Below, one piece after another: positions 13,170 through 51,887 of a stretch of DNA of 64,000 bases (its first letter is position 1; every line of letters starts with the position of its first letter). A program made the translations under genes and the position numbers. The notes beneath the pieces were generated by a model. It worked only from the letters and a program-made list of their open reading frames with translations, was not told where the DNA came from and did no database searches. Source of the DNA: Vulcanimicrobiota bacterium (GTDB lineage: Bacteria; Vulcanimicrobiota; Vulcanimicrobiia; Eremiobacterales; Eremiobacteraceae); the NCBI GenBank assembly GCA_963812135.1, contig CAWETU010000005.1, positions 160,001 through 224,000 on the forward strand, in the 5' to 3' direction.

Positions 13170-13173
13170 ACAG

Positions 13174-13545: not shown

Positions 13546-13576
13546 GGCGACCTGCTCTGTAGCACAAGTTGTCGCA

Positions 13577-14680: not shown

Positions 14681-14684
14681 GCTC

Positions 14685-25226: not shown

Positions 25227-25613
25227 TTGGCCCGCAAGAAATCCCCGACCCTTACCGAGGCGGAGTTGCGCCTCATGGAAGTGCTTTGGGATAAGCGCTC
25301 TGCGACCGTCGGCGAAGTGCTCGCCGGACTGCCCGAAGAAACCGCGCTCGCGTATAGCACCGTGCTCACCACATTACGCATTCTCGAGACCAAGGGCTAC
25401 GTCGCGCACGCAGAATCGGGGCGCGCCTTTGTCTATCGCCCGCTCGTCGGCCGCGACGAAGCGCGGCGCAGCGCGACGCAGCAACTAGTCCGACGCTTCT
25501 TTGACAATTCACCCGAACTGTTGGCACTCAGCCTGCTCGAGCAAGAGAACATCGACGACCAAGAGCTTCAACGCCTCAAGCGGTTGATCGAACGCAGCAA
25601 GGAGAACTCGTGA
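25227..25613 (+). CDS. BlaI/MecI/CopY family repressor
   Basis: LTEAELRLMEVLW, AYSTVLTTLRILETKG, GRAFVY, RFFDNS. Confidence 0.93.
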   Translation: MARKKSPTLTEAELRLMEVLWDKRSATVGEVLAGLPEETALAYSTVLTTLRILETKGYVAHAESGRAFVYRPLVGRDEARRSATQQLVRRFFDNSPELLALSLLEQENIDDQELQRLKRLIERSKENS

Positions 25614-27892
25614 TGCAGGTGTGGCTGCAACTCGGGGAGACATTCGCGCGCGTCAGCGTCGGCGCGATCCTGAACAGCCTGTGGGAAGCGATCGCGCTCG
25701 CGCTCATCGCGTGGCTCGTGCTGCGCGCCGTGCCGCGTGCCAACGCCTCATTGCGTTATGGCCTGTGGTGCGTCGCGCTTCTTGCCGTGCTCGTCCTGCC
25801 GGTGATCGCCTTGTATGCCGGCTCCGCTCCGCCTGCGGCGGCGGCGCCTAGTGCCGATCCGGCCGTCTTAGTCCCGCAGCGCTTCGCCCAATTCTTGTTC
25901 GCGCTCTGGTATGTGGTGGCCACGATCCTCGTGCTGCGCCTCATCGTGAGCTACGTCCGCCTCCAACAGCTCAAAGCAAGCGCGCAGCCAGTGCCGCCGC
26001 TGTACCAGCATCGCGTGCGACGCTGGCTCGCGGCGACGGGCGGAAAACGCGAGTGCCGGCTGTGCATGTCGGACAAAGTCCCGATGCCGGTCGCGATCGG
26101 CCTGCTCGATCCCGTCATCATCTTGCCGGAGCGTCTGCTCGAGCAGTTATCCGATGACGAGCTCGACCAAGTGGGCCTGCACGAGCTGTCGCACTTGCAG
26201 CGCTGGGACGATTACACCAACGTCTTCCAGAAGATCGCCGAGGCGCTGCTGTTCTTCAACCCAGCCGTCTATCTCATCGGGCGCCAGCTCACGCTCGAAC
26301 GCGAGATCGCGTGCGATGACCGCGTCATCGCGGCGACCGGCAAACCGCTGACCTATGCAGCGTGCCTCACGCGCCTCGTCGAAGCCACCGCGCTGACTCG
26401 CCAAGCGCTGCCGGCGCTCGCCGCACTGTCCACGCGCCGCCAGTTCGCCATCCGCATCGAGCGGCTGCTCGACAAGCACCGCAATGTGTTCCCGCTCGCC
26501 TCGGGCCTCGCCGCGATCGCGGCCTGCTTGGCGATGGCCGGCGCGCTTGCCGTCGCTTCGCGGTTGAGCCCGCTCGTCGCGGTGATTCCGGCCCCCCAGA
26601 GCTTTGGCCCCATGACCGCCACAGCCGCGGCACCCATGGCCCGAGCACCTCGAACGATCGCTGAAATTTTAGTCCTGTCGCGGCACGCGGCGGCTGATGC
26701 CGCCGCCACGGCTGCGGTCCGTCCGGCGATCCTCGTTCGCCGCATCGTCACCGCTGTGCCGCGCGTCGTAAGTGTTGCGCGTTCCAACGCCGTGGGAACG
26801 CGCAACTTCACCATTGTGAGTCACGAGACGATCGAAGTCATCGGGGTTCATGCGTCGCACGTCAAGCAGATCGCGCTTGAGGATATGACAAAGCACTTGC
26901 CTGCGCTTGCGACCTTCAATCTGCGCTTCAAGTCGCTGACGAACGAAGTGTACAAGCTCAAGGTCTTCGTCGATCCCGCGCACATCCACGTGATGCGAGC
27001 ACCCGCGGGCGGCCACGTGCCAGCGCACGATCTGGCTGCCGTCACCGCGGCCTACGCCGCAGACTCCGCGAGGTTTGGGACGGACTCAGTCGCGTACGCG
27101 CATACCTCGGCGCAATACGCGAAAGACGCTGACAAATACGCCAAGGATAGCCAGCCGGTGACGGCCGCTGCCCCGCAGGCCCCGTCGGCCAGCATTTCGG
27201 AGACGGACAACGTCCCCGTCCTTGCTGCCTCGTTGCACGCGCTCCCACCCAACTCGCGCGTGGACGTCATCGAGCAGCTCGCCGCGCATCTCGAAGACGT
27301 GCAAGCGCGCGAAGCGCTCATCGATGCAATGTTGCACGACGCATCCGTCACGGTCAAGTTGCGGGCGGTCGAAGCGCTCGGTGCGGAGGTTCAACAGGTC
27401 GAGGAACAAGCGGCCCTGATCCGCGGACTGCGCGCGTCGGACTCCGTCAGGGTGAAGATCGCGATCATCGGCGCGCTCGAGAGCGCGACGTGCGACCAAG
27501 CCGTGCTGCAAGGCCTCGTGTTCGCCTTCGGCAACGGCCAGCCGCAAGCGGTGCAACTCGCCGCGGTGGACGCTCTCACGAGCGTCGCCGACAATCCGGA
27601 TGGCCAGGCCGCGCTGGTCGCAGCGTTCAACAGCGCGAGCAGCCCGCGCGTGAAGACCAGCATCATCAAAGCGCTCATGGACAACGTGCGTGAGCCGGTC
27701 GTGCGTCGCGCGCTTGCGGCCGCATTGCGTTCCGATCAGCCGATATCGGTGCAGCTGGCCGCCGTGGAGGCGCTGGCGCCGGCGATCGACGACCCTGAAG
27801 TTCGCGCGGTACTCGAAGAGGCGGGCGGATCGGGCAGCGACATCGTGCGCTCGACCATCAAGCGGGCGCTCGCGGAATTCGCGTCACCGTAG
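25610..27892 (+). CDS. M56 (BlaR1-type) metallopeptidase with C-terminal HEAT-like repeats
   Basis: HELSH..R.D, FFNP, ERE.ACD, YAACL motifs; about six helical repeats of roughly 35 aa at the C-terminus. Confidence 0.88.
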   Translation: MMQVWLQLGETFARVSVGAILNSLWEAIALALIAWLVLRAVPRANASLRYGLWCVALLAVLVLPVIALYAGSAPPAAAAPSADPAVLVPQRFAQFLFALWYVVATILVLRLIVSYVRLQQLKASAQPVPPLYQHRVRRWLAATGGKRECRLCMSDKVPMPVAIGLLDPVIILPERLLEQLSDDELDQVGLHELSHLQRWDDYTNVFQKIAEALLFFNPAVYLIGRQLTLEREIACDDRVIAATGKPLTYAACLTRLVEATALTRQALPALAALSTRRQFAIRIERLLDKHRNVFPLASGLAAIAACLAMAGALAVASRLSPLVAVIPAPQSFGPMTATAAAPMARAPRTIAEILVLSRHAAADAAATAAVRPAILVRRIVTAVPRVVSVARSNAVGTRNFTIVSHETIEVIGVHASHVKQIALEDMTKHLPALATFNLRFKSLTNEVYKLKVFVDPAHIHVMRAPAGGHVPAHDLAAVTAAYAADSARFGTDSVAYAHTSAQYAKDADKYAKDSQPVTAAAPQAPSASISETDNVPVLAASLHALPPNSRVDVIEQLAAHLEDVQAREALIDAMLHDASVTVKLRAVEALGAEVQQVEEQAALIRGLRASDSVRVKIAIIGALESATCDQAVLQGLVFAFGNGQPQAVQLAAVDALTSVADNPDGQAALVAAFNSASSPRVKTSIIKALMDNVREPVVRRALAAALRSDQPISVQLAAVEALAPAIDDPEVRAVLEEAGGSGSDIVRSTIKRALAEFASP

Positions 27893-34111: not shown

Positions 34112-34141
34112 TTGATTCGCGGGGCCGCTAAATGCTAAGAT
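34112..34141 (+). promoter_or_regulatory. Putative sigma70 promoter for the zinc-ribbon gene
   Basis: TTGATT-18 bp-TAAGAT with TG extension, about 155 nt upstream of the GTG start. Confidence 0.5.
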
Positions 34142-34298
34142 GACAGAGGTTTTGGAAAGTCTAGGGTCACTGCCAGGGCGTCGAATCAGGAAGAATACTC
34201 CTCTTCGCGATCGTCAGGAAACCAGGACACCGAAACGTTCACTACTGACGTGTGTGTTGTCAGAGTCTGACAATGCACCAAGGGGAGTTTCAAACTTC

Positions 34299-34625
34299 GT
34301 GTATACCGACCAACTTATTACCTGCGTCGACTGCGGCAATCAATTCACGTTTACCGCGGGCGAACAAGAGTTCTACGAACAAAAAGGGTTCCAGAACAAG
34401 CCCAGCCGTTGCCCCGATTGCCGGCAGGCCCGCAAGGCCAGCCGCATGGGCGGCGGTGGCGGTGGCGGCGGCAGCAGCCGCGGCTACGGCGGCGGCGGCC
34501 AGCGCGAGATGTTCAAAGCAACATGCTCGAGCTGCGGCGGCGTCGCAGAGGTGCCCTTCCAACCGCGCGGCGACAAGCCCGTGTATTGCCGCGATTGCTT
34601 CCAAAAGCAACGCTCAGCATACTAA
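34299..34625 (+). CDS. Zinc-ribbon protein (zf-trcl plus CxxC-x17-CxxC) with Gly-rich linker
   Basis: CVDC..F.FTAGEQEFY..KGF..PSRCPDCR and CSSC..VPFQP...PVYCRDC. GTG start after AGGGGAG. Confidence 0.92.
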   Translation: MYTDQLITCVDCGNQFTFTAGEQEFYEQKGFQNKPSRCPDCRQARKASRMGGGGGGGGSSRGYGGGGQREMFKATCSSCGGVAEVPFQPRGDKPVYCRDCFQKQRSAY

Positions 34626-34634
34626 GCGGTTAGC

Positions 34635-34708: not shown

Positions 34709-35152
34709 CTATGATTGGGTTTGCAGAGGCTGCCTTGCTCGATTCTGCAGCATCCGTAGGTACCCGCCGAGCAACGCCGCCGCAAGGCCGAGGACGAAGA
34801 GAATCATGTACTCGCCGAGAGACACTGAGGCCTTGCCGGCGACCACGGCCCAGATACCGGTCGCCACACAAAGCCACGAGGACAAAATTCCGTTGAGCAG
34901 TTCGTCGTGCTTAGCGATCCAGGCTGCGACGTAGCCGCCGATCACGGACCCGGCAAAGCCGATCGAACCTGATACGACATAGAGACCGAGATTCGAGTGG
35001 ATGGCTGCGACATAGGCCACCTGCATGTTCGCGGCGTGGACCAGGTCGTATCGAGTAAGCATATAGATCGCGAATGGCAACGACAAGATGTTCGTGGCGA
35101 CAATGTCGACGATGCCGCCCACGAAGACTCCGAGGAGCGAAACCTTCTTCAC
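34709..35152 (-). CDS. Small integral membrane protein
   Basis: About 4 TM segments, GGYVAA..A...ELLNG motif. GTG start at 35152 assumed. Confidence 0.7.
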   Translation of the reverse strand: MKKVSLLGVFVGGIVDIVATNILSLPFAIYMLTRYDLVHAANMQVAYVAAIHSNLGLYVVSGSIGFAGSVIGGYVAAWIAKHDELLNGILSSWLCVATGIWAVVAGKASVSLGEYMILFVLGLAAALLGGYLRMLQNRARQPLQTQS

Positions 35153-35156
35153 GCGT

Positions 35157-35741
35157 CTATCTGCGAAGAGAGCTTTTCGAAATCCTTTGCGGCCTCTGAT
35201 TGGCATCGATCGCAACCGTGCCAGCAGGACGTGCGGCGTTCAAGGGCGCGAGAGCCGACTTTAGTCCCCCTGCGCCGAGCGCGCTAGCCTCCACGTATGC
35301 AAAGGCCCGCTCGAGCTCGGCCTCGTCTTCTGGTGTGAGCTCGTCTTCTGCGGCCTCAAAAATCATGCCATCCTCTTTGGCGATGTGCGCGCGGATGTAC
35401 GACACGTACCCGAGCACAGCGCGTTGGACCGCGCCATCCTGATGAGCGTCAAGCGCTTGTTCCAGGGCGCCGATCTGCGCCCGCCCGTCGACGTGCTCCT
35501 CTGCGAGAAGCGAAGCCATGCCCGCAAGCCGCGGACTGCGCCTCATCATATCGAACAGCGCCTGCTCTTCCTTGCCGTGGTGGTTGGCGTCCGCGTACAC
35601 GCGCACGAACTCAACCGCTGCCCTCAAGAACATGTCGCGCGACGGCCTCACTGTCCGGTCACCGATGACGTCTTCCATGCGCTGGACGACCTGCAAGATG
35701 ACTTGGTGCTCGTCGCGCAGCTGATCGAGCGCGCCGCTCAT
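35157..35741 (-). CDS. Hemerythrin (HHE) domain protein
   Basis: EH, HH.KEE, EH, HI.KED di-iron ligand pattern; ATGA overlap with bcrD. Confidence 0.88.
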   Translation of the reverse strand: MSGALDQLRDEHQVILQVVQRMEDVIGDRTVRPSRDMFLRAAVEFVRVYADANHHGKEEQALFDMMRRSPRLAGMASLLAEEHVDGRAQIGALEQALDAHQDGAVQRAVLGYVSYIRAHIAKEDGMIFEAAEDELTPEDEAELERAFAYVEASALGAGGLKSALAPLNAARPAGTVAIDANQRPQRISKSSLRR

Positions 35742-36529
35742 GCCGCAGCCTTCTCGAGCCGTCGCTTCGCCAGCAGCGCAGCGCCCAGCGCGTTGGCGAT
35801 CTCGGGTTCCTCGGGCACGTTCAATTCCTGACCAAGAGCCTCGACAAGCGCTTTGACCATGCCGCGCTGGCGTGCCATGCCACCGACGAGCGTGATCTCG
35901 GGCTCCACCCCGACACGCTTGAGCAATGCGACGGCGCGCTCGGCGAGCGAATTGTGGATTCCGCGCACGATGTCTTCGACCGAGCGACCCTGGCTCACGT
36001 GGTTGATGATCTCTGACTCGGCGAGCACTGCGCAGATGCTGGAGATAGTCACTGGGTCCTTCCCCCCAAGGCCCAGTTCGCCCGCATCTTCGAGATCGAT
36101 CTCGAGGTAGCGCGAGGCGCGCTCGACAAAACCGCCCGCACCCGCCGCGCATTTGTCGTTGGTCTTGAACTCTTTCACGCGACCGGCCGCGTCCACACGC
36201 ACGGCCCGCGAGCTCTGCGAACCGATGTCGATGACGCAGCGCGTGTTCGGGAACAGATGCGCTGCACCGAACGCGCCGGCGGTGATGTCGGTGACTTGCG
36301 TGTCGCGCTCCAGAAAGCTGGCCCGTCCGAACCCGGTTGTGATGACGTAATCGACATCAGCGCGTGACGCGCCCAGTCCATCTAGCGCCGCCTGGAGCGC
36401 GTTCTCAACCAGATCCTCGAAGGGCGGCCGAGTGCGCGCGATGTGCGAGCCGCGCAGCGTGCCGTCGCGTCCGATGAGCGCCACTTTCGTCGCGCGCGCT
36501 CCGATGTCGATGCCGGCGATGAAACCCAT
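35738..36529 (-). CDS. bcrD: Benzoyl-CoA reductase ATP-dependent activation subunit D
   Basis: AGIDIG, DIGSQ, NDKCAAG, SSICAVLAE (BcrD/BadG-like); ATG 36529 after AAGGAG. Confidence 0.8.
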   Translation of the reverse strand: MGFIAGIDIGARATKVALIGRDGTLRGSHIARTRPPFEDLVENALQAALDGLGASRADVDYVITTGFGRASFLERDTQVTDITAGAFGAAHLFPNTRCVIDIGSQSSRAVRVDAAGRVKEFKTNDKCAAGAGGFVERASRYLEIDLEDAGELGLGGKDPVTISSICAVLAESEIINHVSQGRSVEDIVRGIHNSLAERAVALLKRVGVEPEITLVGGMARQRGMVKALVEALGQELNVPEEPEIANALGAALLAKRRLEKAAA

Positions 36530-36543
36530 GATCGCTCCTTGTC

Positions 36544-37344
36544 CTATGCCGCGCCCGCGGCGGCTTTCGCGAGACCGTGTTCCATTGCGAACACTGCCGC
36601 GCCGATGGCCCCCATGTAGTGCGAGTCGGAGCACACGTTGAGACGCATGCCAAGCCGCTCTTCGAGCGCGCGCACCATGCCGACGTTCAGCGAGACGCCG
36701 CCGGTGAACGTGATCTCCGGCTCCAGCCCGACGCGCCGGACGAGTGCGATGGTGCGTGCCGCGATCGCCCCGTGGATGCCGCCGAGGATGTCGGGCACTT
36801 TCTTGCCTTGCGCGAGGTATGCCATGATGTCGGACTCAACGAACACCGTGCAGACTGTCGAGAGACGGACTGGATTACGCGCCTGGAGCGACAGTTCGCC
36901 GATCGAATCGAGCGGCTGGTTGAGCGCCTCGGCCGCCGTCGCCAGAAAACGCCCCGTGCCCGCCGCGCACTTGTCGTTCATGACGAAATCGAGCACCTCG
37001 CCGTCCAGCACCTTGATCCCCTTGGCGTCCTGCCCGCCCATGTCGATCACCGTCCGCGTTCCCGGGAAAACCGAACATGCGCCCTTCGCGTGACAGCTGA
37101 TCTCAGTGATCTGCAGATCGCCGAACATCACCTTGAAACGGCCGTACCCGGTGCCGACGACGCACAGGATGTCGCTGCGCGACATCCCGCCCGCCTCAAG
37201 CGCCTGTTCGAACGCGCGCTCCGCCGCCCGCGTCACGTTGGACCCGGTGTTGATGAGCGCGCGGGCCGCGATCGCGCGTCGCTCATCCACGATCACGCAC
37301 TTCGTCTGCGTGGATCCGACATCGACTCCGGCTGCGAATGCCAT
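36544..37344 (-). CDS. bcrA: Benzoyl-CoA reductase activation subunit A (short form)
   Basis: [50 protein letters not shown] 37344 after AAGGAGGAG. Confidence 0.8.
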
Positions 37345-37357
37345 GCTCGTCTCCTCC

Positions 37358-38638
37358 TTATGCCGGCGCATGCGTGAGCTTGCGATGGGCGAGCGATTCG
37401 AAGAACGCGTCGATGCGGTTGCGCATCTGCGCCTCCGAGAAATAGCGAGGATCCTCCAGATCCGACTCGACGAGCAGCGTCGACACGCCGCGCTTCGTGA
37501 AATATTCGCGCATGTCGCCCTGGCCCGCTGAGAACAGCCGGCAGCTCTTCACCGAGTGGATCACGAGCGCGTCCGCGTTCCACTCCTCGAGATAACGCTC
37601 GATCTGATCGTAGCGCTGCAAGAAATTGCGGTTGGTGAGGTTCCATTGCAGCAGGTGCTCGGCTATGCTTTCCAGCGGCCGGTCAGGGTCGTGAACGAAG
37701 CCGAATTCCCACAGTCCGCCGACGGTGGAATATGTGGAGGCCACCGCGACGGCGTTCCAGCGCGCGAACATGTCGCGAAACTGTCGCAAATATGGCCACG
37801 GCGGCGGCCCTTCGATGACGAAGCGGACGTCCTCGCGCGGCAGCGGGCCCTGCCCCGCGTCGGCTTTGGCGGCGTATTCTTCATAGGCGGTTTTGAAGAA
37901 CTCGACGCCCGGCTGCGTGCCGCGCAGGCAGTAGAGCGGCGCCATCATCGTCACGGAATCGAAGTAAGCGTCATAGGGCGAGGGCGCGCGTTTTGTGAGA
38001 TGCTTGATCTTCGACCACAGCTCGCCGGTCTGCGAGGATAGGGAAACCGCTTGGCGCAGTTTGTCCTCGTCGAGGCGGCGGCCGGTGATGCCTTCGCAGA
38101 CCTCGATGAGCTGGCGAAGTTGGCGCATGACGTACTCGATGTCGTCGAGCGTCGGACTGCCGGATCGCGTGCGGATGAACGGGATATCGAGGTGGAACGC
38201 AGGCCGCTTCGTGTATTGCGCGAGATGGTCGAACCAATGCAGGTAGACGTTGCATCCGACGTAGTTGCAGAGGAGGAGATCCGGTTCGGGGATCGTCGCG
38301 AACGGCGTCTTGCGCCCTGAGAAATACAGGCCGATATCGGCTTTGACGTACGCGCAGTTGTCGGTCGAGTAGCCCATGCCTTCGGCCGCCTGGATGTGCC
38401 CCAACGATTGCTTCTTGACCGCGAGCTGCAGCGCGTTCACCTCTGGATAGACCGGTAGGATGTCGAACGCGCGCAGCAGCTCGACCGGGTTGCCGCCGAT
38501 CAGCAGGTAGGCGGCCTTTGCGCCGTGGCCTTCCGACGATGCGGTGAGCTCGCGATAGTACTCCGCCATCAGCTCCTTTTGGAGATGGTGCAGGCGGCCT
38601 TGATAATCAGCGGTTTGCACGGCGGCTGACTCCTTCAT
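37358..38638 (-). CDS. bcrB: Benzoyl-CoA reductase subunit B
   Basis: [36 protein letters not shown], matching recalled Thauera BcrB motifs. Confidence 0.87.
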
Positions 38639-39810
38639 GCGAACAGCAGCGATTCCACGAACGTCTCTATTTCGGTCTTGATCTTGTCGAACAGCCACAT
38701 CTTCTCTTCGAACTCGAGGAAGACGTGCGGCACGTGCGCTTCTTGGAGCGCCTTGCGATACAGCACATAGTCGAACAGCGCAGGCTCGCAGAACTTGGCG
38801 GTGAGGACGACGACCGCGTCGGCGCGCTGCGCACGCGCGCGTTCGACCAGCCGCTCGGCCTTCGAATGACCAAGATCGTGCTTGAAGCTCGCGTCGACGC
38901 TGCGCCGCACATAGGCATCGGCCAACCGGGCGAGCGGCCGATCCGCGCCTGCGCCGATGTCTTCCGAAAAGAAACGCCGGCCAAGCAAGAAGTCGTCGTC
39001 AACGATGTAGCAACCAGCGCTCTCGATGGAGGCGATGAGATCGAGCGGCGGCTGCTCGCAGAACGATCCGATCAAAACGATACGGGCACGGTCCTTCGGC
39101 TTGCCGTCACGCTGCGCGAGCTGCTCGAGTGCGGTATCGAGCGTGCGTAAGTGCACGTCCGGCGGGACCACGTGCCCGTAGCGGACGAGCGCGTAGAGCT
39201 CACGCGTGGCGAGCAAGTGCGGCCGCTCACTGCGAAACACGTACAGCGCACGGATCCGCGCGCGGATGGCGTCATACAGCGCGATGCTCGATCGCAAAGC
39301 GTCATCGGACGGAGGCCTGCCGGTGAGCTCGCCCGCCCAGAGCGCGACCCGGGCATACTCTGCGGCGAGATAGTCGACCGCATCCGGAGCGTCGATGCGC
39401 TGCGGGAAGTGGATATAATCGACTTTGGTGTTCGGGAAGTTTCGGGCGTACACGCTGGCGAGGTTCCGGGCAGGGTCGCAGATCGAGTGGAAGACCAGCC
39501 CGTCGAAGTCATCAAGCCGGCCGGTCATGCCCAGTTCGAGCGTGCTCTTGACGATCGAGCAGATGAACGATTGAAAGCGCGCGTCGGCGTGCGCGATCTC
39601 TAACCGGTTGCCGCCGCCGGCCAATCCTACCGGCAGGGCCCCGGCCGCATGGAAGATCTCCACCGGCGAATAGACGGGGAAACAGCCCACGAGCGCCCGG
39701 CCGGGAACTTCGTGTTTCCACGCCTTCGCTTCGGCAAAGTCGAGCGATTCGATCGACTCGACACAGCGCTCGACGGTCTGGTCGAAGGCGGACTCGAGCT
39801 GTACGGCCAT
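38635..39810 (-). CDS. bcrC: Benzoyl-CoA reductase subunit C
   Basis: LDF..A..WK, PVY.P.EI.HAAG.LP, QSFIC.I...LELG, SICD..RNL, GSFCEQPP, FCEPAL. Confidence 0.87.
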   Translation of the reverse strand: MAVQLESAFDQTVERCVESIESLDFAEAKAWKHEVPGRALVGCFPVYSPVEIFHAAGALPVGLAGGGNRLEIAHADARFQSFICSIVKSTLELGMTGRLDDFDGLVFHSICDPARNLASVYARNFPNTKVDYIHFPQRIDAPDAVDYLAAEYARVALWAGELTGRPPSDDALRSSIALYDAIRARIRALYVFRSERPHLLATRELYALVRYGHVVPPDVHLRTLDTALEQLAQRDGKPKDRARIVLIGSFCEQPPLDLIASIESAGCYIVDDDFLLGRRFFSEDIGAGADRPLARLADAYVRRSVDASFKHDLGHSKAERLVERARAQRADAVVVLTAKFCEPALFDYVLYRKALQEAHVPHVFLEFEEKMWLFDKIKTEIETFVESLLFA

Positions 39811-39822
39811 GTCTCGCGCCTC

Positions 39823-40851
39823 CTACTGCGTCGGGATGATGATATTGCGCAAGCCGCGGCCGCTTCTCAGCTCGTCGAGGCCGGCATTGATCTCGTCTAA
39901 CGTGAAACGGCCGGTGACCAACGCTTCGACCGCGATGACTCCGCGGCGAGCCAGATCGATGATCCGCGGATAGTCGACCGGCCTGCAGCCGAGCGAGCCG
40001 CGCACGTCCATCTCGTTGAACATGAGCTTGGCCGCGGCGAGGGTCAGCTCGCGCTCGGAATAGCCGATGACGACAAGCCGGCCGCCCCGTCGCAAGCTGT
40101 CGAAAGCCGTGCGCATGACCTCAGGGTTTCCGATCGCTTCAAAAGCCACGTCGGCGCCGCCGCCGGTCTCGCGCTTCACGGCTTTGGCGATGGACTCGGT
40201 CTTCGAGGCGTCGATGACCGCAGCCGCGCCGAAACGCATGGCTCGCTCGAGCCGCTCCGCTTGCACGTCGACGGCCCAGACCCGCGCGCCGACGGCGGCC
40301 GCGATCTGCACGACGTTCACGCCGACACCACCGCAGCCGAAGACGACGACGCGCTGCCCGGCTTGCACCTCGCCGCGGTTGACGACCGCATGATATGGCG
40401 TTGATACCGCATCGGCGATGAGGCACGCCTCTTCGAGCGGCAGGTCGGTGGGCAGCGGCAGCGGGTCTTTGGCGGGCACGCGGACGTACTCGGCATATGC
40501 ACCGTCGATATGGTTGCCCGGCATGATGCCGCGCTCGCAGATGTTCTCGCGGCCGCGCCGGCACGCGTCGCATGCGCCGCATGTGAGGAGCGCCGGGATG
40601 AGGACGCGATCGCCCTCGTGCCAGTGCTCGACGCCTTCGCCCACCTGCGCCACGATACCCGATGCTTCGTGCCCCAGCACGAGCGGCGGCTTCTGGAACG
40701 TCGGCACGTCGTGATCGATGTAGTGCAGGTCGGTGTGGCATAGCCCGCATGCGGCGACCTTCACGGTGATCTCGCCGCGGCGTGGCGCCGGCACCGGCCG
40801 CTCCTCTAGCGCGAGCGGTTGGTGCGCGCCGTAGAAGACCGCCGCTCTCAT
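39823..40851 (-). CDS. had: Zn-dependent dehydrogenase, probable 6-hydroxycyclohex-1-ene-1-carbonyl-CoA dehydrogenase
   Basis: CGLCHTDLHY, GHE, CGACDAC...C, MPGNHIDG, ADAVSTPY, GCGGVG; operon context. Confidence 0.75.
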   Translation of the reverse strand: MRAAVFYGAHQPLALEERPVPAPRRGEITVKVAACGLCHTDLHYIDHDVPTFQKPPLVLGHEASGIVAQVGEGVEHWHEGDRVLIPALLTCGACDACRRGRENICERGIMPGNHIDGAYAEYVRVPAKDPLPLPTDLPLEEACLIADAVSTPYHAVVNRGEVQAGQRVVVFGCGGVGVNVVQIAAAVGARVWAVDVQAERLERAMRFGAAAVIDASKTESIAKAVKRETGGGADVAFEAIGNPEVMRTAFDSLRRGGRLVVIGYSERELTLAAAKLMFNEMDVRGSLGCRPVDYPRIIDLARRGVIAVEALVTGRFTLDEINAGLDELRSGRGLRNIIIPTQ

Positions 40852-41681
40852 CGGGCTCTTTCGCGGCGTATCGCCGCGTAGTCAGGCGCGCGCTTTTCGA
40901 CGAACGCCTTCATGCCCTCAGCTGTTTCGCTATGACCGAAATGGAGCGCCAGCCATTCGCGCGCGTGACCGATGGTCGCGTACCAGGCCTGGTCTTTCCA
41001 ATAGTTCACCTGCGTCTGCGTGTAGCTCAAGCAGCCAGGGAATTTGGCGAGCAGCTCGTCGCAGAAATCGCGGACCTCAGCGTCGAGCCGGTCGAACGGG
41101 ACCACGCGATTGACCAGTCCCCACTCGAGGGCTTGCTGCGCGGTGATCGGCCGGCACAGGTACAGCATTTCACGCGCGCGACGGTCGCCGATTATGATCG
41201 GCAGCCACTGCGTGGCCCCGCCCGCCGCAACGCTGCCGACGCGCGCGCCGACTTGCCGGAGCGTGACGTGATCCGCAGCGATCGCCAGGTCGCACGCCAT
41301 GTTCATCTCGTTGCCGCCGCCGACCGCCATGCCGTTGAGGCGCGCGATCGTCGGTTTGCCCATGCCGCGCAGCGTATCGATGCAGTCCTGGAACAGCACC
41401 ATGTATTTCCAGAAGTCCTCGGGCTTGCGCAGGTAGCGCTGTTCGTATTCTTTGACGTCGCCGCCGGTGCAGAACGCGGTGCGACCCGCGCCCGTGAGCA
41501 CGACGACGCCGACCTCGTCATCCCACATCGCGGTGCGCAGCGCCTCATACAGATGACGCAACGTTTCGGTCGTGTACGCGTTGTACGACTCCGGGCGGTT
41601 GAACGTGATCGTCGCGACGCGGTCCGCAACCGCGTAAAGGACGTCGGCGGTCTCGGCCGACGGTTGCGTGAGCAGCTTCAT
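40848..41681 (-). CDS. oah: Ring-opening crotonase, 6-oxocyclohex-1-ene-1-carbonyl-CoA hydrolase-like (short)
   Basis: YNAYTT, AFCTGGD.KEY...Y...P..F.KYM.LF, GMAVGGGNE; context between dch and had. Confidence 0.72.
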   Translation of the reverse strand: MKLLTQPSAETADVLYAVADRVATITFNRPESYNAYTTETLRHLYEALRTAMWDDEVGVVVLTGAGRTAFCTGGDVKEYEQRYLRKPEDFWKYMVLFQDCIDTLRGMGKPTIARLNGMAVGGGNEMNMACDLAIAADHVTLRQVGARVGSVAAGGATQWLPIIIGDRRAREMLYLCRPITAQQALEWGLVNRVVPFDRLDAEVRDFCDELLAKFPGCLSYTQTQVNYWKDQAWYATIGHAREWLALHFGHSETAEGMKAFVEKRAPDYAAIRRERAR

Positions 41682-42439
41682 GGAGACACCTCTTCAACGT
41701 CGAACGAGCGCTGGAAAATGGGCTTGCGCCGTTCGAGAAACGCATTGATCCCTTCGGCAGCGTCCAGGGTGGGCAGCAAATCCCGCAGATAGATATGCAG
41801 CGCGTCTTCCGTGGCGGCGGCGCCGAGTGCGCGTTTGCAACAACGCAGCGCATCGGCGGAGAGCGCGAGCAGGGCGTCACACAATGTTTGCGCAGCCTCA
41901 GCAAGCCGCTCGGCCGGCACCGCCTCGCAAACGATGCCCCATAGCTCGGCCGTTGCAGCATCGATGGGACGTCCGGTAAAGATGAGTTCGGCGGCGCGGC
42001 GCTCCCCGATGACCTGAGCCAGCCGTCCGCACGCGATCGGCGGTAGAGCGGCGAGCTTGATCTCAGGCAGCGAGAACGTCGCTCGATGCGAGCAGACGGC
42101 TAGATCGCAGAGCAACACCAACTCGAAGCCGCCGCCGATGGCCGGCGCGCCGACCTTCGCAACGGTGACCGGAGCCGCCACCTCGAAAGCGGCCGCCATG
42201 TCCCCGACGGCATTCAACATCGCGGGCGCGCGGTCGGGCAGATGGTCGGCGATCTCCATGCCCGCGCAGAAGGCGCGTTCGCCCTCGGCCTCGAGCAGTA
42301 CGACGGCGCAATCGTCCAGCTGACGGATTGCCTGGTCGAGGCTTCGCACGTCAGCGATATCGAGCACGTTGAGCGGACCGGCGTGCAGCGTGATCCGGCC
42401 CAAATCGCCCTCGCGTTTGACGGCAATACGATCGCTCAT
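41678..42439 (-). CDS. dch: Enoyl-CoA hydratase, probable cyclohexa-1,5-dienecarbonyl-CoA hydratase
   Basis: P.NVLD, AFCAG..I.DH.P, GGGFEL, PEIKL...PP, YL..L....DA.EG..AFLE.R.P; context. Confidence 0.72.
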   Translation of the reverse strand: MSDRIAVKREGDLGRITLHAGPLNVLDIADVRSLDQAIRQLDDCAVVLLEAEGERAFCAGMEIADHLPDRAPAMLNAVGDMAAAFEVAAPVTVAKVGAPAIGGGFELVLLCDLAVCSHRATFSLPEIKLAALPPIACGRLAQVIGERRAAELIFTGRPIDAATAELWGIVCEAVPAERLAEAAQTLCDALLALSADALRCCKRALGAAATEDALHIYLRDLLPTLDAAEGINAFLERRKPIFQRSFDVEEVSP

Positions 42440-43035
42440 GCGACGACCTCCGTCGCACGCGGCGACGTGATGATGCCGCGCATGAACAGGTCGCACATCT
42501 GACCGGCGATTCCGGCGACATCTGCACTCCCATCAGCGCGATGCCACATGGGAGTCCAGTTCATCATCCCGAAGAGCGCGGCGGTCGCCACGCGTGATGA
42601 GACGGAGGACGGCTGCTCCTGCGCGACCGCGATGACGAGATCCGATGCGCGGGCGAAGTAGCGGCGTCGCCGCTCCTGAATAGCGCCACGGGCCGGGCCT
42701 TCAAGTGAATCTATGCCCCAGAGCAAAACGCGGAACGCTGAGGGGTGCTCGAACACAAAACGCAGGTGGCCGCGAACGAAGGCGCGCAGCTTCGCCTCTG
42801 GCGTCGACGGTGACGCGATCGAGCGATCGAGCGATTCGCTCAATGCGACGAACGCGCGCGTGCAGATCAGTTCGAGGGCGTGCTGCTTGCTGGGGAGATA
42901 GTAATAGAGTCCCGCGATGCTCATGTGGGCGGCTCGCGCGATGTCGCGCATGCTCGCGCCGCCATACCCTCTTCGTGCGAACACCGCCTCGGCGGCATCG
43001 AGCGCCACGCTTAGTCGCCGATCAAATCCCGTCAT
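42436..43035 (-). CDS. TetR-family regulator (KstR2/PaaR-like)
   Basis: SMRDIA..LYYY..SK HTH and GMMNW...W C-terminal motif; ATGA overlap with dch. Confidence 0.9.
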   Translation of the reverse strand: MTGFDRRLSVALDAAEAVFARRGYGGASMRDIARAAHMSIAGLYYYLPSKQHALELICTRAFVALSESLDRSIASPSTPEAKLRAFVRGHLRFVFEHPSAFRVLLWGIDSLEGPARGAIQERRRRYFARASDLVIAVAQEQPSSVSSRVATAALFGMMNWTPMWHRADGSADVAGIAGQMCDLFMRGIITSPRATEVVA

Positions 43036-43124: not shown

Positions 43125-43784
43125 CTAATGCAGATGCACTAGGCCGCTCTTGAGCGCCAGCACAACCGCTTCGACGCGCGTGTGGACGCCGAGCTTGGGC
43201 AAGATGTTCTGGACGTGGTTTCGCACGGTGCTGCGCGAAAGGTTGAGCCGCTGGGCGATGTCGTCAGTGCCCACCCCGGCTGCGAGCAGCCGGAGCACCT
43301 CGATCTCCCGACGCGACAGCGTCTCGTTGATGTGGCGCAGCGCGGCGTCGTCGGCGCGTCGCTCCGGGGCCGCCTCGGTCAGGCGCCGCGTCACTTCCGC
43401 GGCCACGCCGGCGAGATGCTTCGCAGACACGCTTTCGGTAAGCACGTGCACGGCGAGCGGCCGCTCGTCCTCGATGGTGACCGTCGTGACGTCCAGCCAA
43501 ACGTCCGACCCGTCTGGGCGGCGGGCAACCATCTCAAAGCGACGCGGTGCCGTCCCTTGCCGGCATAGCGCGACGACCGCGCAATCCGGACCGCACAAAG
43601 GTGCGCCCGCAGGCGTCAAGCCGTGCATCACCTCATGGCAGTGCCTGCCCACGGCTTCTCCAGCTGGCCGACCGAGAAGACGTTCCGCCGCATCGTTCCA
43701 CGACACGACGATACCCGCTTCGTCGATCGCGACGGTCGCCTCGGGGCTGGCGCCTAGCTTCACGCGCATGCGAGCCTGTGCCAC
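43125..43784 (-). CDS. PAS-LuxR one-component regulator
   Basis: WNDAAERLLG PAS motif; LSRREIEVL..IA..L..S..TVRNH..KLG LuxR HTH. Confidence 0.9.
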   Translation of the reverse strand: MAQARMRVKLGASPEATVAIDEAGIVVSWNDAAERLLGRPAGEAVGRHCHEVMHGLTPAGAPLCGPDCAVVALCRQGTAPRRFEMVARRPDGSDVWLDVTTVTIEDERPLAVHVLTESVSAKHLAGVAAEVTRRLTEAAPERRADDAALRHINETLSRREIEVLRLLAAGVGTDDIAQRLNLSRSTVRNHVQNILPKLGVHTRVEAVVLALKSGLVHLH

Positions 43785-43791
43785 TCCCTCT

Positions 43792-44250
43792 TCAAAGATA
43801 GTGGAGCACCAGCATTTCGGCCACGCACGCTGGTTTCACTTCACTTTCGCGCTCGACCGTCGCGAGAATCCGCACGCGCACACCGCGGGGCACTTCGGCG
43901 ACCTCCACGAGTTTGAACGTGACGCGCAGGCGAGACGGGATCAGCACAGGCGCGGGAAAGCGTACACGCTCGAGGCCGTAGATCACGGCAGAAGTGAAAC
44001 CTTCGACCTGCGCGACGGAATGCCAAAACTGCGGAATGAGCGAGAGCGTGAGTAGACCGTGCGCGACGGTGCTGCCGAAGGGACTCATCTTCGCTCGGCC
44101 CGTGTCGACGTGGATCCATTGGGTGTCGCCCGTCGCACGGGCGAAGTCGTCAACGCGGCGCTGATCGATCCCGAGCCACTCACTGGGCGCGAGCGATTGC
44201 CCCGCGAGCGCCTTGAACCCCTCAACGCCGCGAATCGTCGTCACGGGCAC
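43792..44250 (-). CDS. MaoC-family dehydratase
   Basis: FARATGDTQWIHVD, AHGLLTLSL, YGLERVRF. Confidence 0.92.
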   Translation of the reverse strand: MPVTTIRGVEGFKALAGQSLAPSEWLGIDQRRVDDFARATGDTQWIHVDTGRAKMSPFGSTVAHGLLTLSLIPQFWHSVAQVEGFTSAVIYGLERVRFPAPVLIPSRLRVTFKLVEVAEVPRGVRVRILATVERESEVKPACVAEMLVLHYL

Positions 44251-45819: not shown

Positions 45820-45847
45820 GAGGCCCGGCGCTTTCGCGCCGGGCCTC
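45820..45847 (-). terminator. Perfect 12-bp hairpin, likely terminator
   Basis: GAGGCCCGGCGC-TTTC-GCGCCGGGCCTC; on the minus strand the loop is GAAA and TGTCTTAT follows. Confidence 0.7.
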
Positions 45848-49075: not shown

Positions 49076-49420
49076 ATGTTTCGGTATCCGTCCATCACCG
49101 TCACGTCCTTCGTCGAGCCATTCGACCAGGACTCGGAACTACGCGTCCGCAGCCAGTTCCGCCATCACGTCAAGTTCGGCCGCCGGCTGCACATCATCGA
49201 TCTTGACCAGCTGGATGCTGCTAGCTCGGCCGTCTTCCGCTCGCTGATCATCGCGCTCCGCACGGCACGCCAGGTCGGCGGCGACGTCCGCATCGTCAAC
49301 TCACGGCCAAGCATGCGCCGCGTGCTTGCGCTGACGGGTCTGTCGCGCGTGTTCGGCGTGCACAGCACCGTGCGCGACGCCGTCATGGCGCTGCGCGAAG
49401 AGGCGCTAAAGGCGAGCTAA
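49076..49420 (+). CDS. STAS-domain protein (anti-sigma antagonist-like)
   Basis: IIDL..L..ASSA, GG.VRIV, VLALTGLSRVF; AAGGAGG RBS. Confidence 0.8.
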   Translation: MFRYPSITVTSFVEPFDQDSELRVRSQFRHHVKFGRRLHIIDLDQLDAASSAVFRSLIIALRTARQVGGDVRIVNSRPSMRRVLALTGLSRVFGVHSTVRDAVMALREEALKAS

Positions 49421-50217
49421 GGGGTGCGCTTTGGCCAGCGCGGTTTGCGCTTGTCGAGGAACGCTCTGATGCCTTCGTTCGCGTCGGCCATGAGCGCGTT
49501 GAACGTCATGATCTCCTTGGTGTAGGCGTATGCCTTGCGCTCCGACATATCGATCTGGCGATAGAATGCTTCCTTGCCGATCGCCACGACGTTCGGGCTC
49601 GCATCGGCGACGGCCAGAGCGAGTTCCCGCACCGCGTCCTCGAGCTGAGCGGTGGGCACGGCCTTGTTGATGAGCCCTTGCGCGAGCGCTTCCGATGCGG
49701 GGATCGGCTCGCCGGTGAGCAGCATCTCCATCGCCTTCTTGCGCCCGATGGCGCGCGTGAGCGGCACCATTGGCGTCGAGCAGAACAATCCGATCTTGAC
49801 GCCGGGAGTGGCGAACCACGCGGTGTCCGCTGCGACCGCGAGATCGCACGTCGCGACCAGCTGGCAGCCGGCCGCGGTCGCAGGTCCCTGCACTTGCGCG
49901 ATGACCGGTTGCGGGATCTCGTGGATCGTCTCCATGAGCTCGACGCACAGATCGAAGATGCGCTTGTACTCGATGACCGTGCGGTTGACGAGTTCGCTCA
50001 AGTCGTGTCCGGATGAGAAGATGGTGCCGTTGGCTCGCAGGACCACGGCTTTGATATCGAGATTCTTGCTGACTTCGCGCAGCGCCATGACCAGCTGCAG
50101 CATCAGCGCTTCGGACAGGGCATTGCGCTTTTTCGGCCGGTTTAGCGTGATGTACGCGAACTCGCCGTCAAGCTCGAGCAGGACGTCGGCGGTCGGATTG
50201 GTCAGCATCGTCGCCAT
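49417..50217 (-). CDS. Enoyl-CoA hydratase/isomerase family protein
   Basis: NRP.KRNAL, FSSGHDL, AAGCQLVATCD, GLFCSTP. Confidence 0.9.
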   Translation of the reverse strand: MATMLTNPTADVLLELDGEFAYITLNRPKKRNALSEALMLQLVMALREVSKNLDIKAVVLRANGTIFSSGHDLSELVNRTVIEYKRIFDLCVELMETIHEIPQPVIAQVQGPATAAGCQLVATCDLAVAADTAWFATPGVKIGLFCSTPMVPLTRAIGRKKAMEMLLTGEPIPASEALAQGLINKAVPTAQLEDAVRELALAVADASPNVVAIGKEAFYRQIDMSERKAYAYTKEIMTFNALMADANEGIRAFLDKRKPRWPKRTP

Positions 50218-51887
50218 CAGTTGATACGCTTCTCCCGGCCGGCCCATTCCTTGTCGCGCAGCTTGAACTTTTGGACCTTGCCCGTCGACGTCTTCGGCAG
50301 CGGTCCGAACTCCACCGTTTTCGGGGCTTTGAAATGCGCGATCTTCTCGCGACAAAACGCGATGATATCTTCTGAGGTGGCCTTCGCGCCTGGCTTGAGC
50401 GTCACGAATGCCTTTGGAACTTCGCCCCATTTCTCGTCCGGCACGCCGACGACGGCGGCCTCGAGCACCGCGGGGTGGGCGTAGACGGCGCGCTCGACTT
50501 CGATCGTCGAGATGTTCTCGCCACCGCTGATGATGATGTCCTTGGCGCGATCGCGCAGCTCGATGTAGCCGTCAGGATGCATGACGCCGAGGTCGCCCGA
50601 GTGGAACCAGCCGCCGCGAAACGCTTTGTCGGTCGCCGCCTGATCGTTGAAGTAGCCCTTCATGACATTGTTGCCGCGCATGACAACTTCGCCCATGGTC
50701 GACGCGTCAGCGGGCACATCGTTCATCTGGTCGTCCACGACGCGCAATTCGGGCGCGTGGATGAATCCCACGCCTTGGCGCGCCTTGAGCCGCGAACGTT
50801 CTTCGGAATCGCGGTCGTCCCACTTGCTCTGCCACTCGCTCACCGTATGCGGTCCGTACGTCTCCGTCAGGCCGTAGGCGTGGGTGAGGGTGGCTCCCAT
50901 GGACTCGATGCGCGCGATGACAGTCGGCGGCGGAGGTGCGCCCGCAGTCACGATGCGCAACTGCCGCGGGAACTTGTAATCTTTGCTCGGCGGTTCGTTG
51001 GCGATCATGACCAAGACAGTCGGCGCGCCGCACAGATGCGTCACGCCTTCACGCTCGATCAGCTCGAAGATCGCCTTCGCCTCGACCTTCGGCAGCGCGA
51101 TGTGGCGCGCACCGGCCGCCGTCACCGCCCACGTGTAACACCAGCCGTTGCAGTGGAACATCGGCAGCGTCCATAGATAGACGCTTTGTCCGGTGAGCCC
51201 GGCGTGATAGACCTCGCCAAGCGCGTTGAGGTAGGCACCGCGGTGCGTGTACATGACGCCTTTGGGCCGGCCGGTCGTGCCGCTCGTATAGTTGATGGAG
51301 ATCGGATCGTCTTCGTCATCGATCCCGAGATTGAACGGTTCGGGACTACCGCGCGAGATGAACTCCTCATACGTCGCGTTGGAGGGTCGAATAAATTCGA
51401 CCCCTGCGTTGGCCGGTTCGTGGCCGACCCAAATCACGTGCTCGACGTTGGACGCTGCGAGCCCCGGAGCGATGAGCGGCGCGAAATCCGGGTGCGCAAT
51501 GATCGCCTTCGCACCGCAATGCTGGAGGATATAGCCGATCTCATCCGCGCTCAGGCGGATATTGATGGCGACGAGCACCGCGCCGATCTGCGGCACCCCG
51601 AAATGCGCTTCCAGCGCCTCGTCCGAATTGTAGGCGAGCAACGCGACGCGGTCGCCCTTTTCGATGCCGGCGGCGCGCAGCGCGCTGGCCAGCGCATACA
51701 CGCGTCCGCCGACCTGCCCATATGTGTAACGGCGCGCGCCGTCCACCATGCCGTCCTTGTCCGCGAAGACGTGAGCGCTGCGGTCGATGAACGCCAGCGG
51801 CGACAGCAGCGACCGGTTGACGGCCATACCATCCCACTGGTCACGGGACCAGAGCTTTTGAAACGTCGGTCGATCCAGCCCTAACAT
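50217..51887 (-). CDS. Acyl-CoA synthetase (AMP-binding)
   Basis: NYTSGTTGRPKG, LPMFHCNGW, YGLTETYGP, FHSGD, LPKTSTGK. Confidence 0.93.
   Translation of the reverse strand: MLGLDRPTFQKLWSRDQWDGMAVNRSLLSPLAFIDRSAHVFADKDGMVDGARRYTYGQVGGRVYALASALRAAGIEKGDRVALLAYNSDEALEAHFGVPQIGAVLVAINIRLSADEIGYILQHCGAKAIIAHPDFAPLIAPGLAASNVEHVIWVGHEPANAGVEFIRPSNATYEEFISRGSPEPFNLGIDDEDDPISINYTSGTTGRPKGVMYTHRGAYLNALGEVYHAGLTGQSVYLWTLPMFHCNGWCYTWAVTAAGARHIALPKVEAKAIFELIEREGVTHLCGAPTVLVMIANEPPSKDYKFPRQLRIVTAGAPPPPTVIARIESMGATLTHAYGLTETYGPHTVSEWQSKWDDRDSEERSRLKARQGVGFIHAPELRVVDDQMNDVPADASTMGEVVMRGNNVMKGYFNDQAATDKAFRGGWFHSGDLGVMHPDGYIELRDRAKDIIISGGENISTIEVERAVYAHPAVLEAAVVGVPDEKWGEVPKAFVTLKPGAKATSEDIIAFCREKIAHFKAPKTVEFGPLPKTSTGKVQKFKLRDKEWAGREKRIN

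Follow-up and report, generated by a model that had tools for sequence, protein, structure and literature searches.

Introduction

Does an operon from the phylum Eremiobacterota, a widespread soil lineage with very few cultures, encode an enzyme that reduces the aromatic ring of a coenzyme A (CoA) thioester with the help of adenosine triphosphate (ATP), and on which substrate would such an enzyme act? The question is raised by nine genes at positions 35157–43035 of a 64,000-nucleotide (nt) stretch of DNA from a Vulcanimicrobiota bacterium (assembly GCA_963812135.1, contig CAWETU010000005.1, positions 160,001 to 224,000), and this whole stretch is called the window here. In a preliminary description, the genes had been named tetR-dch-oah-had-bcrCBAD-hemerythrin and presented as a complete benzoyl-CoA dearomatisation operon with a non-canonical layout; the names dch, oah and had represent that reading and not an observation.

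According to Fuchs et al. (2025; PMC11971306), the few bacteria in which class I reductive dearomatisation has been characterised are denitrifying and phototrophic Proteobacteria. In this study, gene content, cofactor-ligand residues, tree placement and synteny of the operon were observed directly, and on this basis we consider it probable that the operon encodes an aryl-CoA reductase that dearomatises its substrate in an ATP-dependent manner, along with a ring-opening module of the Had/Oah type; benzoyl-CoA or a close analogue is the predicted substrate.

Results

Reductase genes and their phylogeny

Two proteins of the HGD-D family and two different BcrAD_BadFG ATPases are encoded side by side in the order C-B-A-D, with junctions of −4, +13 and +14 nt. 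This is the subunit order of BcrCBAD from Thauera aromatica and of BadDEFG from Rhodopseudomonas palustris, and the Pfam scores of all nine proteins of the operon were far above the gathering scores. The reading of these genes as a class I ATP-dependent-type aryl-CoA reductase set, accompanied by ring-processing genes, was upheld. The closer match that had been claimed, to the Thauera BcrCBAD/BadDEFG family itself, was not obtained, as all four subunits stayed below the NCBIfam equivalog cut-offs (bits/cut-off: C 323/421 with TIGR02263, B 306/487 with TIGR02260, A 181/578 with TIGR02259 and D 163/313 with TIGR02261). Furthermore, the TIGR02259 profile spans 432 positions, whereas the A subunit of the window has 266 amino acids (aa). 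For both catalytic subunits the benzoyl-CoA reductase model was nevertheless the best in NCBIfam (C 323 bits, B 306 bits), and the models for HadC (181/700) and HadB (178/750) were lower and below cut-off, as were the BZD-type models TIGR03190/03191 (BzdN 116/454, BzdO 128/449).

The closest solved enzyme was 3-methylbenzoyl-CoA reductase (MBR; MbdONQP, PDB 9g87, 9gai, 9gal and 9gba), with 349 bits to MbdQ (269 aa), 272 to MbdN, 236 to MbdO and 155 to MbdP. MBR is likewise built from a pair of HGD-D proteins and a pair of compact ATPases (~265–273 aa); in contrast to the window, its gene order is O-N-Q-P, and in the window a hemerythrin gene is coupled to the last gene of the C-B-A-D series. 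The next solved relatives were HadB/HadC (154/148 bits) and BzdO/BzdN (121/106 bits), and the A-like ATPase matched HgdC-type activators with 212–213 bits. The BzdNOPQ enzyme of Aromatoleum sp. CIB (PDB 8s02; PMC11971306) belongs to the same enzyme family and shares its chemistry, but its similarity to the window proteins, by these scores, was low.

For the phylogeny of BcrB, 1.84 billion cluster representatives were searched and yielded 222 proteins at E ≤ 1e-30, among which 61 full-length matches were labelled by NCBIfam; the labels of the references denote NCBIfam score and PDB match, not named organisms. Two of the 61 passed the BcrB cut-off (P0129 with 815 bits and P0126 with 630 bits), a dozen had BcrB as their best model below the cut-off, and the remainder were HadB-like. 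The IQ-TREE phylogeny was built from 33 rows, namely the window protein, six members of its clade, 15 sequences like benzoyl-CoA reductase (BCR-like) and 11 HAD-like sequences, the other matches being left out. BCR-like rows (22) and HAD-like rows (11) were split at 100/100. The window protein fell in a clade of eight rows (100/98), and this clade was sister, at 86/91, to a clade of seven rows and did not lie inside it. We call the seven-row clade MBR-like because its members score 318–345 bits to MbdO; the corresponding values are 236 for the window BcrB and 221 for true BcrB. True BcrB formed a separate clade (100/99), and its 815- and 630-bit representatives were 40–44% identical to the window protein. 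From this tree it follows that the window enzyme belongs with the tetrameric enzymes of class I described in PMC11971306 and lies outside both tetrameric types characterised so far.

An alternative is that the genes encode a radical enzyme of the 2-hydroxyacyl-CoA dehydratase type, or another non-dearomatising member of the BCR/HAD group, in which ATP would serve for activation only and not be consumed stoichiometrically. In the NCBI annotation the homologues carry the name "2-hydroxyacyl-CoA dehydratase family protein", Pfam detects only HGD-D in the catalytic subunits of the window, and the two ATPases (266 and 263 aa) are as compact as HgdC and HadI, with 212–213 bits to these activators. 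HadBC with its activator HadI (PDB 3o3m and 4eht) is indeed of the same superfamily, an HGD-D protein with an ASKHA-type activator, and shares the cluster-ligand cysteines. Against this stand the 100/100 separation of BcrB from HAD-like proteins, by which BcrB grouped with BCR and MBR and not, as the preliminary description had considered, with HgdAB/Had dehydratases, and the clear difference between 178/181 bits to HadB/HadC and 306/323 bits to the BCR models. Dehydratases use one homodimeric activator encoded by one gene; in contrast, two different ATPase genes are present in the operon, and their neighbours are Had-like and BadI/Oah-like ring enzymes. We therefore regard a dehydratase as most improbable, and retain the dearomatising reductase as the preferred reading.

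Cofactor-ligand residues

When residues of BcrB are counted from the Met at 38638, its Cys95, Cys129 and Cys366 fall on Cys95, Cys128 and Cys380 of BzdO, its Glu66 on BzdO Glu65, and its Tyr97 on BzdO Tyr97. In BzdO these five residues belong to the aqua-[4Fe-4S] site or serve thioester binding (PMC11971306). The Cys, Glu and Tyr residues were conserved in the window's clade and in all BCR-like and HAD-like rows examined; since dehydratases share them, they indicate a working cluster site and not the type of chemistry. The position of BzdO His131 was an invariant Tyr in the window's clade, Phe in the rows of true BcrB, and Tyr, Phe or Val in the MBR-like rows.

Among 71 BcrC sequences, every one had Cys84, Cys111, Cys251, Cys267 and Cys341, and 70 had Cys43. 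MbdN shares five of these six and has His at the position of Cys43, and the three BcrB cysteines are also common to MBR and the window enzyme. Cys251 and Cys267 had no counterpart in BzdN, DCCP or HadC, in which a Cys occurs a few residues further on; conversely, two of the six Cys positions of BzdN are absent from the window BcrC. In the ATPases, Cys135/Cys174 of the A-like subunit (numbering of the open reading frame, ORF) were invariant in 73 of 73 sequences and Cys162/Cys201 of the D-like subunit in 71 of 71, each pair being 39 residues apart, a spacing that we take to be that of the bridging-cluster ligands Cys127/166 of HgdC.

Ring-processing enzymes and operon layout

Three genes for candidate ring-processing enzymes precede bcrC, namely two crotonases, ECH1 and ECH2, and a Zn-dependent alcohol dehydrogenase (Zn-ADH). 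The name Dch for ECH1 found no specific support, since the Dch model TIGR03189 gave 94 bits against a cut-off of 292.5 and ranked only 11th among the families matched. Nor was the name Oah for ECH2 supported as it stood: ECH2 was by far the best match to the Oah model in the genome (161+29 bits vs 70 for the next), but it missed all equivalog cut-offs (BadI, TIGR03210, 214/468; MenB 206/380; Oah, TIGR03200, 191/464) and is a MenB/BadI-like crotonase of 277 aa, compared with the 360 positions of the Oah profile, and its nearest PDB entries were MenB (182 bits). The Zn-ADH had the Had model TIGR03201 as its top NCBIfam match (242 bits), below the cut-off of 339; it was also the genome's best match to the Had model (241 vs 111 bits for the next).

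The gene cluster of T. aromatica is had-oah-dch-bcrCBAD-fdx, as given in PMC6449761. As in the window, three ring-processing genes stand directly 5′ of CBAD and one small gene 3′ of it, so that the layout, called non-canonical in the preliminary description, is only mildly so: the window differs in the order of the three genes 5′ of bcrC and in having a hemerythrin gene at the site of fdx. The word "complete" was an overstatement, as neither a ferredoxin gene in the operon nor a CoA ligase gene beside it was seen; the search for such a ligase covered the window and the annotated flanks of four Eremiobacterota relatives.

Conservation of the operon and contexts in other phyla

In a genome collection, 384 stretches encoded a relative with the motifs of the clade, and the best 80 of them, all from metagenome-assembled genomes (MAGs), were used for the comparison of loci (23 of Eremiobacterota type and 57 from other phyla). 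The closest BcrB homologues, with 80–94% identity, came from MAGs labelled Vulcanimicrobiaceae, Baltobacteraceae, Eremiobacteraeota or Vulcanimicrobiota, which confirmed the suspicion of a non-proteobacterial lineage and identified it as Eremiobacterota (WPS-2). BcrB was 76–86% identical over the 23 Eremiobacterota-type loci. The order TetR-ECH1-ECH2-ADH-BcrCBAD was kept in 17 of these 23; a further locus, L015, kept ECH1-ECH2-ADH-BcrCBAD on a contig that ends before TetR, and the other five lie on contigs of 1.9–7.3 kb that end before these genes. Because the same order recurs in 17 of 23 loci, it is not due to chance.

The TetR protein, whose family was confirmed by Pfam (TetR_N/TetR_C_24), was 44–63% identical in the 17 loci that carry it, and a PAS-LuxR gene lay just 5′ of tetR in 16 of these 17, L019 being without a match. 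The 23 PDB matches of TetR were generic TetR proteins, none of them a solved regulator of an aromatic pathway; MbdR is also a TetR-family protein. By tblastn, 19 Eremiobacterota-type loci had a MaoC gene next to the operon, either upstream or, inverted, downstream.

Two Baltobacteraceae-type loci showed additional genes of note. The gene just 5′ of PAS-LuxR encodes an 888-aa protein in which a DctP (TRAP-type solute-binding) domain is fused to a methyl-accepting chemotaxis signalling domain (L012:253–2919 and L017:256–2922); this protein may be an organic-acid chemoreceptor beside the reductase operon. Just 3′ of the operon, both loci carry a gene for a Beta_elim_lyase protein of 473–516 aa, the size of tyrosine phenol-lyase or tryptophanase (L012:11811–13361 and L017:11958–13379); a shorter Beta_elim_lyase gene is present at 57347–58504 of the window.

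The 57 loci from other phyla (Acidobacteriota, Binatia, "Deltaproteobacteria", Chloroflexota, Dormibacterota and Verrucomicrobiia) had only BcrCBAD in common with the window, and among the loci compared the ECH-ECH-ADH module beside the reductase is specific to Eremiobacterota. Ten of them were annotated with Pfam and NCBIfam. A BadH-like short-chain dehydrogenase/reductase (SDR) gene followed bcrD directly in six of the ten (two of these proteins scored 296–303 bits against a cut-off of 431), an Amidohydro_2 gene came next in four of the six, and crotonases, acyl-CoA dehydrogenases, 3-hydroxyacyl-CoA dehydrogenases or thiolases were encoded in most of the ten. Genes for 2-oxoacid:ferredoxin oxidoreductase lay a few genes 3′ of bcrD in L043 ("Deltaproteobacteria", 12781–17269) and L058 (Binatia, 13581–16628), unlike the window operon, which has none; they recall the KorAB donor system of Thauera. 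In L061, from a Dehalococcoidia MAG, BcrCBAD-like genes and a crotonase gene were followed at 8992–12980 by genes like those for the gamma, alpha and beta subunits of 4-hydroxybenzoyl-CoA reductase (bits/cut-off: alpha 858/995, beta 299/405, gamma 188/258), and a second Mo-hydroxylase large subunit is encoded upstream at 155–2449. These contexts are as expected around a reductase of the benzoyl-CoA type.

The contexts also bear on the substrate. The same class of enzyme could act physiologically not on benzoyl-CoA but on a different CoA thioester with an aromatic or alicyclic ring. Examples are benzoyl-CoA with a methyl, hydroxy, amino or halogen substituent, or a ring acid derived from plants or lignin, and the ECH/ADH/ECH set would be tailored accordingly. 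Such a substrate would fit a clade that stands apart from true BcrB and has the methylbenzoyl-CoA reductase type as its nearest relative, that missed every equivalog cut-off, and that is paired with two downstream modules, Zn-ADH with the BadI/Oah-like enzyme in Eremiobacterota and BadH-like SDR with Amidohydro_2 in other phyla. In addition, 14 of the 19 reductase-bearing genomes of the phylum lacked a member of the benzoate-CoA ligase family at E ≤ 1e-110. On the other hand, in L061 the clade adjoins genes like those of 4-hydroxybenzoyl-CoA reductase, an enzyme that makes benzoyl-CoA, and benzoyl-CoA is also said to be a substrate of MBR-type enzymes. A substrate of this other kind thus seems rather unlikely to us, and benzoyl-CoA or a close analogue remains the preferred assignment.

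Host genome and distribution within the phylum

The source genome is a MAG of 2.79 Mb in six contigs (98.4% complete, 0.9% contamination). It contains a gene of the benzoate-CoA ligase family (624 bits, cut-off 375), whose neighbours are Liv-type ABC transporter genes and another acyl-CoA ligase gene, and a single gene for the alpha subunit of 2-oxoacid:ferredoxin oxidoreductase. We considered an aerobic Box pathway and rejected it, as no match in the genome exceeded the BoxB cut-off and only a PaaA-like match of 154 bits was found. This match, far below the cut-off, belongs to a fragment pattern of a PaaA/BoxB-like di-iron oxygenase at C1:977068–978890 that adjoins a crotonase gene and lies ~12 kb from the only 2-oxoacid:ferredoxin oxidoreductase gene; it may be part of a phenylacetyl-CoA-type cluster.

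Photoheterotrophic use of the operon as in R. palustris was rejected because no Photo_RC match occurred in the 98%-complete genome, and denitrifying use as in Thauera because no NarG match exceeded the cut-off, other nitrate reductases not having been searched. The genome has two genes for subunit I of heme-copper oxidases, and no bd oxidase was found in it. With two heme-copper oxidases and no NarG above the cut-off, reaction centre or bd oxidase, the host looks aerobic.

At E ≤ 1e-100, BcrB was found in 19 of 301 sampled Eremiobacterota genomes (~6%, the source genome included) and in 14 of 234 high-quality genomes. In-frame stops in five of the BcrB matches do not point to broken genes, because they fall in the part of the query 5′ of the true start, where bcrC ends. 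The carriers belong to 10 of 100 genera, and two of five other genomes of the same genus have the gene. A BcrB from a MAG labelled Dormibacteraeota (P0031) is nested in the Eremiobacterota clade beside a Baltobacteraceae protein (100/99), a placement that could reflect horizontal transfer or an error of binning or labelling.

This patchy spread (19/301 genomes, 10/100 genera, 2/5 in the genus), the nested Dormibacteraeota-labelled protein and the lack of an anaerobic respiration marker in the genome (NarG, reaction centre and bd oxidase were sought) would suit a horizontally acquired accessory cassette that is rarely or never used in an aerobic host, with the hemerythrin as a mere passenger. 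The operon, however, has nine intact frames with overlaps of the kind that couples translation, its GC (guanine plus cytosine) content equals that of its flanks (~64%, even over the window), and its conservation throughout the phylum is strong (BcrB 76–93%, ECH2 77–84% identity across Eremiobacterota) with invariant cofactor ligands. Intact frames, matching GC content, conservation and invariant ligands together point to purifying selection, and we consider an idle cassette very unlikely compared with a functional reductase operon.

Hemerythrin

The last gene of the operon encodes a hemerythrin-domain protein, and its ATG overlaps the stop codon of bcrD (ATGA). No other PF01814 match occurs in the genome. 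By tblastn, a hemerythrin gene immediately followed bcrD in L047 (Acidobacteria) and in each of the 17 Eremiobacterota-type loci that extend to this position; in L062 and L072 it lay upstream on the opposite strand. With a local hidden Markov model (HMM), a hemerythrin-domain ORF was detected in the flanks of 36 of the 80 loci, including 13 (12 labelled Acidobacteriota and L026 labelled Dormiibacterota) in which it has a fixed place ~3–4 kb 5′ of bcrC. Pfam confirmed the domain in all four proteins submitted (the window, L024, L036 and L062).

The di-iron ligands H12, H55xxxE59, H83 and H119xxxE123 were invariant in 19 sequences and match the HHE domain of RIC/ScdA/YtfE-type and other hemerythrin-domain di-iron proteins, with its H, HxxxE, H, HxxxE ligands. 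The ScdA_N domain is absent from the window protein, whereas the proteins of L024 and L036 (Acidobacteriota) combine ScdA_N with hemerythrin (RIC type). Because a di-iron partner recurs at different positions in different phyla, a functional link between hemerythrin and reductase can be argued. The protein most likely senses or scavenges O2, or aids the repair of O2-labile Fe-S clusters.

Transcription unit and neighbouring genes

The coordinates of the operon and of associated features are given in Table 1. The nine genes share the minus strand, and their tight packing, as first described, was borne out: from tetR to the hemerythrin gene the junctions measure −4, −4, −4, +12, −4, +13, +14 and −4 nt. 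The first of these is the 4-nt overlap of tetR with the ECH1 gene, and the ATG at 38638, overlapping the stop codon of bcrC, is the true start of bcrB. Four gene starts were corrected against homologues, and that of hemerythrin was taken directly from the sequence. GGAGG-like sites precede bcrC, bcrA and bcrD.

Table 1. Features of the reductase locus in the window, listed from 5′ to 3′ on the minus strand.
Feature	Position	Strand	Evidence
Strong terminator-like hairpin, 5′ of the co-oriented run	45820–45847	−	12-pair stem, 11 G-C pairs, T-rich tail
MaoC-like (R)-specific enoyl-CoA hydratase	43792–44250	−	Pfam MaoC_dehydratas 81 bits
PAS-LuxR (GerE) transcription regulator	43125–43784	−	Pfam PAS 50.6, GerE 70.5 bits
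TetR-family regulator, first gene of the tight block	42436–43035	−	TetR_N 49, TetR_C_24 82 bits
ECH1 crotonase, candidate dienoyl-CoA hydratase	41678–42439	−	ECH_1 116 bits; role from position only
ECH2 crotonase of the MenB/BadI/Oah subfamily, candidate ring-cleaving hydrolase, 277 aa	40848–41681	−	ECH_1 190 bits
Zn-dependent alcohol dehydrogenase, candidate 6-hydroxycyclohex-1-ene-1-carbonyl-CoA dehydrogenase (Had-like)	39823–40851	−	ADH_N/ADH_zinc_N
BcrC/MbdN-like gamma subunit	38635–39810	−	HGD-D 239 bits
BcrB/MbdO-like beta subunit, catalytic [4Fe-4S] subunit	37358–38638	−	HGD-D 222 bits
Compact ATPase subunit, MbdQ/BcrA-like, 266 aa	36544–37344	−	BcrAD_BadFG 219 bits
Second, distinct ATPase subunit, BcrD/MbdP-like, 263 aa	35738–36529	−	BcrAD_BadFG 178 bits
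Hemerythrin-domain di-iron protein, 194 aa	35157–35741	−	Pfam Hemerythrin 59.6 bits vs gathering 25.3
Weak terminator-like site after orf168	34611–34628	−	7-pair stem

The co-oriented run extends upstream through the genes for PAS-LuxR, the MaoC dehydratase and a phosphoesterase, which follow at gaps of 89, 7 and 35 nt, respectively. The transcription unit may reach upstream to the PAS-LuxR and MaoC genes, both of which are kept in relatives; the phosphoesterase gene was not found by tblastn in the locus of any relative. A promoter scan of the 89-nt gap 5′ of tetR gave no promoter-like site on the minus strand, and the counts of such sites were near those of shuffled sequences. Among sequencing runs, a search gave 10 of DNA type and none of RNA. 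The hairpin at 45820–45847 is a possible 5′ boundary of the unit and the site at 34611–34628 a possible 3′ boundary; terminator-like hairpins are weak evidence here, because their total count was not above that in shuffles. Orf168 (34709–35215) had no Pfam match and no tblastn match in the loci of relatives.

Other genes of the window were noted in passing. At 49417–51887, 6 kb upstream of the operon and on the same strand, a gene for an enoyl-CoA hydratase (NF006008, 344 bits, cut-off 313) overlaps one for an acyl-CoA synthetase (PRK08162 family, 717 vs 677), and the pair may belong to a separate acyl-CoA pathway. Just past the 3′ end of the operon, at 34140–34625 (+), lies a convergent gene whose 161-aa product has the treble-clef zinc-finger domains zf_Tbcl and zf_Tbcl_2. 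A BlaI-type repressor (Penicillinase_R) and then a 760-aa BlaR1/M56 peptidase with HEAT repeats are encoded at 25227–27892 (+).

Discussion

Several observations count against a dearomatising reductase with benzoyl-CoA or a close analogue as substrate. All four reductase subunits and the three ring-processing enzymes scored below the equivalog cut-offs; the BcrB clade stands apart from HMM-verified BcrB and beside, rather than inside, the MBR-like clade, and no characterised member of it was found. Another crotonase of the genome surpassed ECH1 on the Dch model (107 vs 94 bits). The operon has no ferredoxin gene, and the nine ORFs of the genome with a CxxCxxCxxxCP motif all lie away from it. 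The benzoate-CoA ligase family (E ≤ 1e-110) was present in 5 of 19 BcrB-positive and 75 of 282 BcrB-negative genomes of the phylum, including the unpublished G230 and G275 among the latter 75, so there was no association. Finally, an aerobic-looking host without obvious anaerobic respiration looks like an odd home for an O2-labile enzyme.

Considering these points together with the conserved operon, the cluster ligands and the tree, we still hold the dearomatising reductase to be the probable function, and propose a model for its action in which we infer ATP dependence, substrate, product, the order of downstream steps, electron donor and hemerythrin role. By homology with BzdNO and MBR, the two ATPase subunits would share a bridging [4Fe-4S] cluster and take up a low-potential electron, which ATP hydrolysis would drive into the BcrC/BcrB-like pair. 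The BcrB-like subunit would hold the aroyl-CoA, most likely benzoyl-CoA or a close ring-substituted analogue, beside its three-Cys [4Fe-4S] cluster, where the ring would be reduced to a cyclic dienoyl-CoA. Hydration by ECH1, followed by oxidation by the Had-like Zn-ADH, would prepare the ring for hydrolytic opening by the BadI/Oah-like ECH2, leading to (3-hydroxy)pimelyl-CoA and β-oxidation. Expression is probably controlled by TetR and PAS-LuxR.

The window enzyme differs from each of the known systems in a definable way. MBR is its closest solved relative, but the sister link to the MBR-like clade reached only 86/91. With BzdNOPQ it shares the three-Cys [4Fe-4S] site and the equivalents of Glu65 and Tyr97, and differs from it by the Tyr that replaces His131 and by two cysteines in BcrC at other positions. 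HadBC forms a separate clade with lower scores (154 and 148 bits). We found no paper on such a system in Eremiobacterota, and the literature on benzoyl-CoA, benzoate or anaerobic aromatic metabolism in this phylum contained, as judged from listings, only incidental mentions. The description of the system as possibly undescribed is nevertheless not supported as it stood; IMG already labels the BcrB homologues "benzoyl-CoA reductase subunit B". What is new here is the phylum, together with its own conserved form of the operon, in which a Had-like Zn-ADH and a BadI/Oah-like hydrolase replace the BadH-type set, and the strict translational coupling of the genome's sole hemerythrin.

A further idea, which we put forward only tentatively and with clear doubt, is that this branch of reductases is adapted to O2-respiring bacteria and that the di-iron hemerythrin, of RIC type in Acidobacteriota, is co-produced with the enzyme to scavenge O2 or rebuild Fe-S clusters. 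If this were true, soil bacteria from several phyla without cultures, living aerobically or microaerobically, could use reduction to dearomatise compounds of the benzoyl-CoA type and would need neither oxygenases nor the anaerobic way of life classically tied to such enzymes.

If the enzyme is active, more soil organisms would be able to degrade lignin- or plant-derived aromatic acids where O2 is scarce, and enzymologists would have a fourth subtype beside BCR, MBR and BZD. Furthermore, the recurrent hemerythrin partner offers a testable lead on how an O2-labile enzyme may work in O2-respiring hosts.

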